A DNA stretch of 64,000 nt from Lophium mytilinum (taxonomy: Eukaryota), in NCBI GenBank assembly GCA_010093605.1, contig MU004184.1:444801-508800 (forward strand), read 5' to 3'. The position numbers and the translations under genes were made by a program. The notes under the pieces were generated by a model. It saw only the letters and a list, made by a program, of their open reading frames with translations. It had not been told where the DNA came from and did not search any database. Within the stretch, counting starts at the first letter, position 1; each line of letters begins with the position of its first letter. This document shows, in pieces, positions 3,586-18,372 of the stretch.

Positions 3586-3773
3586 TGGGGGTTCCAAAAA
3601 TTCCCTGCCGATCCGAAGACCAGCAGGAGCGGTCAGGTTGGGTAGTTTTCAACCAGCAAAAGACACGGGCTCGGACGACTCCTCACTGCCACGCGTAATG
3701 CCCTGTGATGATTGTTAGTGAGAAGCCAGGAGAGGAAAGGATGGGGGAGGGGAGACTTGCCTTGCACTAGGAT
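3586..3773 (-). ncRNA. U4: U4 spliceosomal snRNA containing one 58-nt GC-AG intron (exon 1 3773-3761, intron 3760-3703, exon 2 3702-~3586)
   Basis: Spliced read AUCCUAGUGCAAG|GGCAUUACGCGUGGCAGUGAGGAGUCGUCCGAGCCCGUGUCUUUUGCUGGUUGAAAACU... matches the fungal U4 layout: k-turn 5' stem-loop (CAGUGAGG...CCGAG), stem I UUUGCUGGUU, 3' hairpin with C(UUCG)G, Sm site AAUUUUUGG (3602-3594). Intron reads GCAAGT...CACTAAC...CACAG. Spliced length ~130 nt; ends approximate. Confidence 0.9.
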
Positions 3774-3884: not shown

Positions 3885-3993
3885 TGCCATGGTGCCTGGG
3901 GCCGTGCGGTCTTCAACGCACGGCCCCAGGCACCATGGCAGGGTACCTACACTACAGAGGGGTGGTGCCTGGGGCCGTGCGTTGGAGACCGCA
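3885..3993. repeat. Perfect 24-bp inverted repeat plus a third inverted copy
   Basis: 3885-3908 and 3917-3940 are exact reverse complements (8-nt loop); 3964-3993 is the reverse complement of 3905-3934 with one mismatch. Confidence 0.9.
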
Positions 3994-9339: not shown

Positions 9340-11019
9340 AAAACTATGGTTTGATTATTGGATTTCTTTCTCGATATATGCATTGGATCCTCCCATGTTG
9401 AAGCGATGAGTTTAGGCCCGTACTGGCAAGGCGCTAGCAGTATCTGAAACTCATTAATGTGCCAATTGTGATGAACCGAAACGTGTTTGTCCAATGCTGA
9501 TAGCTCTTACGGATGCCTCGTGACATACTGAATATGATTCAGCGACATATCCGGATGGTTGACGTATACTAGGGCTTCGAAGTCAGAGCTTAGAATGAAA
9601 TCTTTAAGACTCCTACAACTTCCCGCAATTGAAAGGGCGGGAATCTGCTTAATCAACATGAGTGCGAGGTTCTCGATTCCCGGGTAGATGTTCTTGGATT
9701 CTCGCTTCCATGTTTGAACCCACATAGGTTTGTACAGGACGGCCCTCAAGCCCAGTACATGAAGCGTGCCCAGAGAAAAGGGCAATTGCATGACTAAACA
9801 GTGGATGGAGAGTTGTTCCGGGAGCTGAATTGCCGAAAGTTCGATGTGTGTTGCCACCATAACGGGGACTACTTGGACCGTCGCAGCCTTGCTCGACTCT
9901 GCAGCCACGATGAACCACATCCAGCGGAAGCTGGGGGAGCATTTTGAGGAGCAGTCAAGTTCCCTGACCGTTCATAGCGGAATGGCCCCGCACTTCCATT
10001 GACAACAATACTCTTTCAGGTCATTGTCGATTGCTTGTCCGATTTCGATAGCGCTCTCTTTCATGCCTTTGGTCTGCCATTCTTCATCCCCCTCCTCCTT
10101 CAACATCAGCTTAGTCGTGTCCTCTTTATCGGTCGCGGCTCGGTAAAGACTTTGACGGTGTGATCTTATACTTAACCTTTGTCAGGTTCCAGAGAAACAT
10201 TGGGATTGTGAAGAGTCCGCTAGAGAACTGGGAACACCCACGACGACGGATCCCATTGCACTCAACCTCTTCATCTTCCCCATCCTCGTACGGATGTTTT
10301 CCGTTCCAAATCGTTCTCGCCACGTCAGAACGGTCGAAGCGGGGGGTGACAGAGACCGCAGAGAAAAGCATGCGGCGAAGAGGCAACCCAAAGTATCTTC
10401 CGAGAGGCTTCTATGTTTGAGCAGCATCAGCTGATCGAGGATGGAATCGGTTCGGTTGGGAGGAGAAGGAGAAGGGGGCGTGTTTTTCTGCGGTTTCTGG
10501 AGGAGGAACTTTCCAAGCGATCGGAAAGTAGACTTGCGAATTTTTGCTATGCATGCCTGTATTGTAGAGACGCGTCAGAGATGGAAAGGAGATGAGGAGG
10601 GGACATGAAACGGTGCTGATGACCTCTTGTTTATCCTGGAGCTCATGTTATCGAGATTTCGCACTCGGCTGGACTAGGAGGGAATCTTGCCGATGAGGAC
10701 GTTCTGCTGTCTCGGTCAAGACGCGTCGCCCCAATGCCGTACTCTGAAAACGCGTCGGCTCGGCCGGCTGGTGGATGCCCACTTGAGGCCAACCTGGATT
10801 GCTTCATCATGAGGCTGATGTTGTTTGTTCATTGTGTCCCACCCGGGCAGCAACACTGCAAGTCATGTCCCAAGGACTTGTCGCAGCTGCGCTGGGCCAG
10901 CACTTCCAGCATAGCGGCGTAGTATAATTGTAGGATAGCAGCGTCATATGGTCGCAGAATAGCAGCGCCTTCGTCGTATCCTAACAGCATGCCACTACAG
11001 CTGCATCTCAGAGAGATTT

Positions 11020-11066
11020 CTTCTTCTTCGACGACCCAGACAAGCTGAGTGGATCGATGAAAAAGG
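11020..11066 (-). terminator. Third copy of the snRNA downstream hairpin
   Basis: 42/47 identical to the U4 copy; substitutions largely keep pairing. Confidence 0.6.
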
Positions 11067-11067
11067 T

Positions 11068-11151
11068 GTGTGTCACCCGAGGTAGTGCAATATGGGCAAC
11101 GCAGTGTGGTTTTAACGATTGGGTGCCCGCTCACTAGGCATCACAGGTTAT
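11068..11151 (-). ncRNA. Candidate ~85-nt U2-related small RNA, or truncated U2 relic, retaining stem-loop IV
   Basis: CUGCGUUGCCCAUAUUGCACUACCUCGGGUGACAC aligns to SL IV of the U2 at 18 kb and still folds. It is followed by the third copy of the snRNA downstream hairpin (11020-11066), with TGACGTCA ~75 nt upstream. Confidence 0.4.
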
Positions 11152-12149
11152 GAAGGGGGAGAAATGGTTCGAGGCGTGGGCTGCTTGAGTATTTCAAGAG
11201 TTCTTCAGCGAGCCATGGCATTGGATGACGTCACCACAGCAACGCCAGGGCAGGTTCGTGTTCACTCAAAGGTGAACCAAGATGCGGCGCCAGGATGGAG
11301 GAGTTCCGGCCGAGTTATCGGTCATGGAAGCTCCTCAATGGGAGGTCATGTCCAGGCATTGATATACGGAAACATGAGCCTTTGAGCGGCAATTCAAGTA
11401 TTTAGATTACGAACAACTCTGTAGCATAGCTTCTTACTCTGGAACATCATCCTAGCGCATCGAAGTAGGTAACAATAGCTCTATCTGTAGAGACTTAGCT
11501 AAATGTCATCTCTCAGTTGGCGAAACGTGCGAAGCATAGCGGAGCCTAGATGAAAGAAAGGTTCGCAACCTCAATTTGAAGCACGAACCCTCAGCTTTCT
11601 TGAACGGATGCCCCAAGATGCAAATATATCACTTGCCAAGTCCTGGGACACAGTGAGGCGTTGGGAGAGTGATCAATCCACTATTGGCTTTGCACTAAGA
11701 ACTTGGAAAGAATGGCTCTTTTTCCCTGGAGACCTTATGATGAAAACTCCCAGTCCGGATCCCAACTCCTAGCTTGTTTGGATAAAACTTGAACAAGACG
11801 AGAAATATTCGAAATATATAGGAAACAACGCTCCCTTCCGTTTACTTCGAACCCCTAAATCTCTCTGTCTCCTACCTCTTCGAACATATATCCCTGAAAT
11901 GTACACACAGCGTAGCCATGTTGCCGCCTAGCATGACGCGGAGTGAGGATTGGATGGGAAAGATATTTTTCCCGCCATAATTGTTGCCCGGTGGGGATCC
12001 CGAAGCTTCGTTGGCGGGGCGTGCAGACAGTGCCTTGGATGCTGGGATTGAGGTCAGCCAGGGCCTGAGATGCTTTAGCGAAGGGGGTGCAGAGCTGTAT
12101 ACCGTCGTCTGGGTGACCCTTATGCGTTCATGGTTTGTTCCAATGTTGT

Positions 12150-13703: not shown

Positions 13704-14548
13704 GACGCGTAGTGTGGTGTTGATTCGCGCGTTGTAGGTTTTGTAGGTTTTGTGGGCTTTGCAGGCTTTGTTTGATTTGTAGGTGTTGTAGGTTTTGTAG
13801 GCTTTGCTGGATGTCTTCGGTGGGGTGAGAGGGAAAGGTTTGTGGTTGCAGCGCACGGTCTGTTGAGGTGACGGAAGGTGAACACGTGATGGAGACACGA
13901 TAAGTTCCCCGGCGATGACAGGTATGCATGAAAGACCTCTTGAAAACTTGTGCGTGTTATTCTACCGCGGTCTGAAGCCCCTCGATATACTTTTGCGATT
14001 CTACAATAGCGGAAAGACGCCACTCTGCACACACAGGAAGCTTGCCAGGCCACCTCAGACACCATAATTTAGGTCTACCGAAATCAAAGATTGCCGTATC
14101 TACGTCAAAACCTTCATCTGAGTCTGCCCCTATTACCCAAGCTCATCTCTCCTTCAGCGTCATACATATCTTCGACTTCAACGCCAATCCCTTCTCTTCC
14201 GCCCGTAGGCTGCAACGAGGAAGACGTTCTACTCTCCTCAGATGTACAAGATTAGACTATCCCCAAAGCAAACTTTCCAACTTTTCAGAATCTTTTCGCT
14301 CAATCAAACTCTCTTTTGAGCAATTTTCTACTCTCTCAATTTGATAAGCTCTGACTATCCACAGAGCACCATCAAATGCCGCAAAACGATGACTATATGT
14401 TCACAATATCAACGCGTTCACATTCGAGAACATTCTTCGAAGCAGCAGAAACACCGTTCCCAATTTCAACTCCCCAGTTCAAGCTCCAGAGGGTCAACTA
14501 TCTTCATACCGTCTGAGCGTCCACAAGCTACTAACCAAACCCCCAAAT

Positions 14549-17800: not shown

Positions 17801-17928
17801 CCCAGCCTGTGCAGTGCGGACGCGTTCAGGGTTCTCGCTCAGGACGTGACGCGTCACAGCAACATCACAACACCACAACATTCACATCACGAAAGCAAGA
17901 GGCACGTCGTAGGATCGCCAAGAGAGAA

Positions 17929-17977
17929 AAGCTTCTTCTTCGAAGACCCGGACAAGCCGAGCAGTTCAATGAAAAAG
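17929..17977 (-). terminator. Conserved hairpin downstream of U2
   Basis: Homologous to 3516-3564, with a compensatory A-U to G-C pair. Confidence 0.65.
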
Positions 17978-17991
17978 AGGTGAACAAAATG

Positions 17992-18286
17992 TTCGCGTCG
18001 GCCCGAGGCAGTGCAATACGAGCGACACAGTGCCCCTGAACATAGGCAAGCCCAGCGGCTCAGGGGACAGTTTCCAAAGATTGAGAAATCGAGGGGAGGC
18101 CCCGTAGGACCATTTCCAGCGATTAAACTGAAAAACACCTGTAAGATTGTTAGTGATGGAAGCAAACAGGATAGGAACAGGGAACTTACCAATACTACAC
18201 TTGATCTAAGCCAAAAGGCACTGTGAAGATTGTTAGTCATGATGTGGAAAGGATGGGGGTGGAGTTGGAACTTACAAGAGAGCTGA
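17992..18286 (-). ncRNA. U2: U2 spliceosomal snRNA containing two GT-AG introns (18275-18221, 55 nt; 18189-18139, 51 nt)
   Basis: Spliced read AGCUCUCUU|UGCCUUUUGGCUUAGAUCAAGUGUAGUAUUG|GUGUUUUUCAGUUUAAUCGCUGGAAA... shows SL I, branch-recognition GUAGUA, SL IIa, IIb with UACG loop, IIc complement CGAUU, Sm-like AAUCUUUGG, SL III and SL IV loop GUAUUGCACU. ~190 nt spliced; ends approximate. Confidence 0.92.
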
Positions 18287-18310
18287 GGTCCACGAACTGT
18301 CGGCGGCGGA

Positions 18311-18372
18311 GTATTTATTGCTGGCGAACGACGCTAGCTTGGCGTGATGACTCATCAGCGCTAGGCAGTTTA
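18311..18372 (-). promoter_or_regulatory. snRNA promoter: TATA-like box plus 29-bp upstream element
   Basis: 18344-18372 identical to 3837-3865; minus-strand AATAAATA ~30 nt upstream of the U2 5' end. Confidence 0.75.

Follow-up and report, generated by a model that had tools for sequence, protein, structure and literature searches.

How does an organism make U4 snRNA if the U4 gene must itself be spliced, and where would an intron in such a gene have come from? Both questions are raised by a locus in Lophium mytilinum, which lies within the 64,000-nucleotide stretch of contig MU004184.1 analysed here as a whole (the window). A preliminary description had proposed that this U4 gene is split after 13 nt by an intron with a non-canonical GC donor. 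From the sequence comparisons presented below we conclude, with a probability of roughly 85%, that the locus, which by its sequence probably belongs to a filamentous ascomycete, is a functional, RNA polymerase II-type fungal U4 gene with a real 58-nt GC-AG intron.

Introns of mRNA type are already known in snRNA genes, and U4 is an added case. In Schizosaccharomyces pombe and many other fungi such introns interrupt U6 (Tani and Ohshima 1989, 1991; Canzler et al. 2016; all via PMC5855946). The latter, a 2018 review of U6, names spliceosomal introns in U6, U2, U5, U1 and rRNA and does not mention U4 in the text available, so that by this account U4 was the sole major snRNA lacking a reported intron; the accessible part of a 2017 paper (PMC5832005) singles out U3 and U6 alone as frequently interrupted. 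The absence of U4 from these two lists, as far as their available text extends, agrees with the scant precedent noted in the preliminary description. A 2008 survey of the small RNAs of Aspergillus fumigatus (PMC2377427), in which the alignment of U2 and U4 is partial, mentions introns in neither in its available sections. A search of the full-text literature, with most subscription journals outside its scope, found no report of a U4 intron.

Structure of the U4 locus

The U4 gene lies on the minus strand, with the following features.

3865-3837, minus: upstream promoter element, a 29-mer that includes CTAGCGC and TGAGTCA
3812-3806, minus: TATA box, TATAAAA, its first base 39-40 nt 5' of the proposed start at 3773
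3773-3761, minus: proposed U4 exon 1, ATCCTAGTGCAAG, 13 nt, with which the U4 strand of U4/U6 stem II begins
3760-3703, minus: proposed spliceosomal-type U4 intron, 58 nt, with donor GCAAGT, CACTAAC at 3720-3714 and the end CACAG
3754-3729, minus: C-rich, pyrimidine-rich box in the U4 intron (intron bases 7-32)
3702 to about 3578, minus: U4 exon 2 (Rfam RF00015), which starts GGCATT and holds the rest of the stem II strand, the 5' stem-loop with k-turn, the stem I strand, the 3' stem-loop, the Sm site and the terminal hairpin
3696-3663, minus: k-turn stem-loop of U4, AGTGAGG...CCGAG (Rfam alignment)
3659-3645, minus: stem I strand of U4 (Rfam alignment)
3602-3594, minus: Sm site, AATTTTTGG (Rfam alignment)
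3564-3507, minus: 3' box common to U4 and U2, 90% identical to the U2 copy at 17920-17977

In an Rfam comparison of the unspliced DNA, 3712-3578 matches the U4 model RF00015 at E = 2.9e-16, with 80.4 bits against a gathering score of 46. This alignment takes in the Sm site and the 3' hairpin as well as the k-turn stem-loop and the strand for stem I, and the gene is thus as complete in these elements as had been proposed. Because the match runs to 3578, the gene should end at about this position and not at 3586; of the span originally given, 3586 to 3773, the start is upheld by the promoter geometry and profile scores described below, and the end is not. At its 5' end the alignment is less regular, placing the last 10 bases of the intron on model positions 1-11 with a 3-base gap and dropping the AGTGCA segment. 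The branch A of the intron is located 12 nt before its 3' end.

Several other features of the window were noted. A near-perfect palindrome of about 60 bases (3885-3945), with GC-rich arms of about 26 bases, lies about 20 bases 5' of the promoter element of U4; one 19-base arm recurs 73 bases away, at 3963-3981, and the palindrome gave only weak, sub-threshold microRNA-like matches in Rfam. A large neighbouring ORF matched only a eukaryotic ABC transporter on look-up. At 13723-13826 there is a tandem array of about 11 copies of a 9-base unit (TTGTAGGTT-like).

Evidence for the intron

Relatives of the gene were collected with a pattern for the conserved U4 core, which yielded 117 metagenomic loci (designated L) with 119 U4 instances, or 120 with the window. 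The contigs carry no taxonomy, and the term fungal-type is used here as a label for likeness to the window. In these relatives the uninterrupted 5' end comprises ATC, two variable bases, AGTGCA, one variable base and GGGC, followed by the stem-loop; exon 1 of the window, directly joined to exon 2, gives exactly this 5' end. A profile was built from 44 distinct intronless fungal-type U4 genes (47 usable) and, since positions 1-19 of RF00015 are unpaired, it answers the same question as RF00015 would on the spliced form. Exon 1 fits profile positions 1-13. The joined exons score 116.6 bits, aligned from position 1, compared with 101.7 bits, aligned only from position 12, for a start at 3712, and with 99.0 bits for exon 2 by itself. 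The 13-nt exon and the 58-nt GC-AG intron of the preliminary description are both supported by these scores.

Pairing with U6 was assessed with the U6 of locus L041 (RF00026, 90 bits), which comes from another organism. The first 20 nt of the spliced U4 pair with it at -24.6 kcal/mol, against -10.5 kcal/mol for the form that starts at 3712, and when the spliced U4 is co-folded with the same U6, stems II and I and the 5' stem-loop form the expected three-way junction. The ability to form both stem II and stem I with this U6 appears only once the intron is removed. The complete 5' strand for U6 stem II is present only in the spliced RNA, and the location of the intron within that strand, as first described, is borne out by the pairing energies.

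The flanking sequences can be compared with the relatives in the same way. From the TATA box to the start there are 39-40 nt in the window, 39-44 nt in the other intron-bearing loci in which a TATA-like box is seen and 38-60 nt (median 46) in intronless loci. The TGAGTCA motif lies 74 nt before 3773, and in the 13 of 53 intronless relatives that have it the distance is 74-110 nt, with a median of 81. On the 3' side, TTTTCATTG in the 3' box begins 31 nt past the Sm site; of 45 intronless relatives, 24 have TTTTCAT[TC][GA] no more than 80 nt past that site (median offset 30). The length of the intron, 58 nt, falls among the 50-66 nt of the 17 tabulated U4 introns of relatives. Except for the C at the second donor position, its splice signals conform to the usual consensus. 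GC donors are rare, and those that work make up for the C with consensus bases elsewhere in the donor. The junction AAG/GCAAGT...CAG/G, read from the minus strand, is the one originally given, and the donor CAG/GCAAGT is found in L090.

Might the gene nevertheless be intronless, with a shortened 5' end starting at 3712 and the 13-mer upstream a coincidence? RF00015 does align 3712-3578 over the full length of the model with its 80.4 bits, and the sequence at 3712 opens with ATC, like U4, but this alignment leaves out the AGTGCA segment and depends on the 3-base gap, the profile score drops by 15 bits, with alignment from position 12 only, and the stem II pairing falls from -24.6 to -10.5 kcal/mol. 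There is, moreover, no TATA box 38-60 nt 5' of 3712, and measured from that position TGAGTCA lies at 135 nt, beyond the 74-110 nt of the relatives. A 13-mer with all conserved positions, the right distance from a TATA box and a donor directly after it is very unlikely to occur by chance, and we regard an intronless gene as highly improbable. The use of some other splice pair, with a canonical donor, is scarcely credible. GT dinucleotides are present after nt 6 and four bases into the intron, but with the sole nearby acceptor the first would delete the seven bases GTGCAAG and the other would add four bases, and both would disrupt the 5' end, which the intronless loci (59 by pattern and 6 by eye) have without a break. 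The GC donor alone reproduces the conserved U4 5' end.

It is also conceivable that this U4 copy is a silent or decaying paralogue, with the GC donor as a disabling change and an intronless U4 at work elsewhere in the genome. The rarity of GC donors would suit such a history. Families of U4 genes are possible in fungi, since several are named in Neurospora (U4-1, U4-2 and U4-5, in the available text of the paper concerned). Against a silent copy, the U2 gene in the same window has a promoter box identical at 29/29 bases and a 3' box of 90% identity, and all conserved elements of U4 are intact. The remaining donor positions fit the usual consensus, as expected of working GC donors, and the GCAAGT donor of L090 is identical. 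We therefore consider a silent copy unlikely, and favour a functional gene from which the intron would be spliced.

Four public sequencing runs compared with the locus gave no joints and no coverage of exon 1 or the intron, and they are uninformative on splicing, expression and habitat. In three of them (X1-X3) the only match is an identical 41-nt piece (3595-3635); its flanks differ, so that it represents the U4 of another organism. A fourth run (X4) holds a 44-nt piece that resembles the 3' box with four differences and continues into a U2-like 3' end.

The U2 gene and related introns in the window

A U2 gene is located 14.5 kb from the U4 gene, with two apparent introns of its own that the preliminary description does not mention.

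17986-18372, minus: U2 snRNA gene (RF00004 match 18232-17986, 66 bits)
18275-18221, minus: U2 intron 1, 55 nt, identified by eye, after an exon of about 9-14 nt
18189-18139, minus: U2 intron 2, 51 nt, identified by eye, directly after the branch-site-pairing sequence

The 29-mer promoter element is repeated without change 5' of U2 (18344-18372), these being its 2 matches in the window (0 of 100 shuffles). Both U2 introns have the form GTAAGT...ACTAACAATCTT(C)ACAG, similar to the U4 intron. In the Rfam alignment of U2 the tail of intron 1 is aligned as the 5' end of the RNA, and intron 2 is taken as a 63-base insertion.

The likeness among the three snRNA introns extends beyond their ends. Local alignment gives a score of 40 for the U4 intron with U2 intron 1, 38 for the U4 intron with U2 intron 2 and 30 for the U2 pair, as against a best score of 25 and a median of 12 for 143 other intron-like strings in the window; the observed score of each snRNA intron pair was reached by 0 of 5000 shuffles. 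Global alignments of the three have 40-45 identical bases over 56-63 columns, and the motif ACTAACAATC[AT]T[CT]ACAG is found, within the window, in the U4 intron and U2 intron 1 only. This likeness may reflect common descent or a shared constraint.

Introner-like elements, reportedly recognised by van der Burgt et al. in 2012 as near-identical introns multiplied through many genes, were considered as a category for these introns and set aside: only three related introns occur in the window, all of them in snRNA genes.

A third copy of the 3' box lies at 11008-11130 (minus strand). It is 71% identical to that of U4, has no promoter box, and the 60 or so bases before it look like the terminal stem-loop at the 3' end of U2. 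The region 10950-11500 gave no Rfam match at E values up to 1, and 11008-11130 is probably a truncated U2 pseudogene.

U4 introns in metagenomic relatives

How widespread are introns in U4? The 5' ends of the 119 metagenomic instances were assigned to classes by pattern and inspection: of the fungal-type instances, 65 have an uninterrupted 5' end and 19 contain one intron or two; among the rest, about 23 resemble other eukaryotes in their 5' end, a contig end truncates 9, and 3 are odd. Among fungal-type metagenomic loci whose U4 5' end can be read, introns are thus present in 19 of 84, and at least 16 of these 19 are distinct (L046/L103, L096/L104 and L018/L061 are near-duplicates). Their first introns are positioned as follows.

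After nt 5: L057
After nt 6: L007, L096, L104, L105, L099, L109
After nt 7: L005, L019, L018, L061, L059
After nt 9: L043, L073, L091, L107
After nt 24: L046, L103
After nt 29: L090

None of the 19 shares the position of the window's intron, after nt 13, and the GCAAGT donor recurs in only one of them, L090. Of the intron-bearing loci, 16 were submitted to Rfam, 14 of which are distinct, and all were recognised as U4, with 53-99 bits; four intronless loci submitted alongside scored 94-107 bits. Positions can differ even between similar genes, as in L019 and L107, whose exons are almost identical over the roughly 90 bases compared and whose introns follow nt 7 and nt 9, respectively. One U4 gene may hold two introns, since L043 and L073 carry a second one, absent from their close relative L091; it follows the strand for stem I, within the single-stranded central part of U4, and has the form GTATGT or GTACGT...TACTGAC...TGCAG. 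U4 introns appear to be common in nature, a point that the preliminary description does not make.

Locus L041, the source of the U6 used above, has an unusual arrangement of its own (L041:47-289). The T-run of its U6 ends exactly where a full-length U4 (106.6 bits) starts, with no spacer or U4 promoter between them, and the 3' flank of this U4 looks genomic. The junction may be a chimera produced in assembly, may stem from retro-insertion, or may belong to a genuine fused locus.

The C-rich box and the origin of the introns

Many of the cap-proximal introns share a C-rich box, defined here as four C, up to two pyrimidines, A/T, an optional second A/T, and C. Its occurrence, with that of a simple CCCC run, was compared in introns, in other sequences of the window and upstream of U4 genes.

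U4 introns after nt 5-13: CCCC run in 14/15, C-rich box in 11/15
U2 intron 1: CCCC run present, C-rich box present
U2 intron 2: CCCC run absent, C-rich box absent
Short intron-like strings elsewhere in the window: CCCC run in 4/72, C-rich box in 0/72
Intronless U4 genes, 40 bases 5' of the start: CCCC run in 25/53, C-rich box in 17/53
Intron-bearing U4 genes, present upstream spacer: CCCC run in 1/14, C-rich box in 0/14

In the introns the distance from the donor to the start of the box is 9-22 nt, and the pattern search found no box in the introns after nt 24 and nt 29. In the intronless genes the 40 bases 5' of the start are 80% pyrimidine. Many of the U4 introns, by our own count from the intron listing, end in ATC...AG and so resemble the 5' start of U4 itself.

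Direct comparison of introns with promoters, all of it between sequences of low complexity, gave a more limited result. Bases 7-32 of the window's intron are identical at 23 of 26 positions to the spacer that abuts the start of L008, an intronless gene and one of the closest relatives, and the score of this match was reached by 0 of 300 and 2 of 200 shuffles. When the 15 U4 5' introns and the two U2 introns were compared with 57 intronless promoters, only the window's intron stood out; L059 was equalled by 7 of 200 shuffles, L105 by 19 of 200 and the remaining 14 by at least 46 of 200. With 17 queries, the match of the window's intron is therefore only borderline. The same intron shows no likeness to its own upstream region and exon 1 (287 of 1000 shuffles scored as high), and 13 of 14 introns showed none to their own upstream regions. 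The exception is L007, in which a 12-mer occurs in the intron and, at a similar offset, 5' of the first exon (0 of 1000 shuffles).

It is possible, though we propose it only tentatively from these comparisons, that the cap-proximal U4 introns, and perhaps U2 intron 1, are former core-promoter spacers and not insertions. A new promoter would have arisen upstream together with a duplicate of the gene's first 5-13 nt, and the old spacer between TATA box and start, together with the old 5' end, would have become the intron. If true, this would provide a route of intron gain without reverse splicing. It would also explain why introns occur in U4 despite its exit before catalysis, why they cluster at nt 5-13, why they contain the C-rich box and why their ATC...AG ends mimic the 5' end of U4.

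When 64,644 flanking bases were searched for additional copies of the U4 5' end upstream of the genes, one turned up besides the three true first exons, in L058, against 0.4 expected. The orphan copy in L058 is 16 bases long, has a pyrimidine-rich leader and lies about 170 nt 5' of a complete intronless U4, or about 200 nt 5' of the k-turn.

A role for the C-rich box in RNA pairing was also considered. In most of 10 loci its best duplex is with the G-rich stretch before the Sm site, which is simply the most G-rich part of U4, and the idea was dropped.

Implications

If the locus works as its organisation suggests, transcription by RNA polymerase II would begin at about 3773, and the capped 13-nt exon 1 with its GC donor would be recognised by the major spliceosome, with branch formation at the A of CACTAAC. 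The GC donor might, as the preliminary description suggested, make maturation rate-limiting. The 3' end would be made near the 3' box that U4 shares with U2, and Sm assembly would be next. Loss of the 58-nt mRNA-type intron would leave a mature U4 of about 138 nt, and the spliced RNA would presumably be the working U4 of this organism.

The yeast Rhodotorula hasegawae is said, from work by Takahashi et al. in 1993 and 1996, to have mRNA-type introns in its U2, U1 and U5 genes. The present case is like that one in having spliceosomal-type introns in fungal Pol II snRNA genes, in conserved segments and in several genes per genome; it differs in that here U4 is interrupted, 13 nt from the cap and with a GC donor, and in that one intron family is common to U4 and the two U2 introns of the window.

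Fungal U6 introns, as far as they are covered by the available text of PMC5855946, likewise make a spliceosomal RNA dependent on splicing, and are likewise lineage-specific insertions at varying positions. In contrast to them, the U4 introns cluster, for the most part, in the first 5-13 nt. The U3 snoRNA genes of yeasts and Neurospora, in the accessible part of PMC5832005, are similar in being of Pol II type, with a TATA promoter and canonical introns near the 5' end; they encode a different RNA with a different function, and that part of the paper describes no link between the introns and promoter spacers.

Could reverse splicing have placed an intron in U4? In the available text of PMC5855946, the location of introns near the catalytic centre is used as evidence that they spread by reverse splicing, an argument that is strained by U1, which leaves before catalysis. 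U6 is part of the catalytic centre and is the basis of the idea; U4 differs in leaving before catalysis, as U1 does. The doubt expressed in the preliminary description about a reverse-splicing origin is reasonable, and the match to the spacer of L008 points to a possible alternative. A U4 intron is a direct test case for the reverse-splicing argument, and a stronger one because such introns are frequent (19 of 84 loci), are concentrated at the 5' end and have a box in common.

There is a practical consequence for annotation of the Rfam style, which silently misplaces the 5' ends of such genes, in that the tail of the intron is taken as the 5' end of both U4 and U2.

Finally, if the intron must be removed to make U4, the supply of U4 would depend on the very machinery to which U4 belongs, and the supply of U2 in this genome would likewise depend on splicing activity. 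Production of both RNAs would thus need a working spliceosome, forming a feedback loop.
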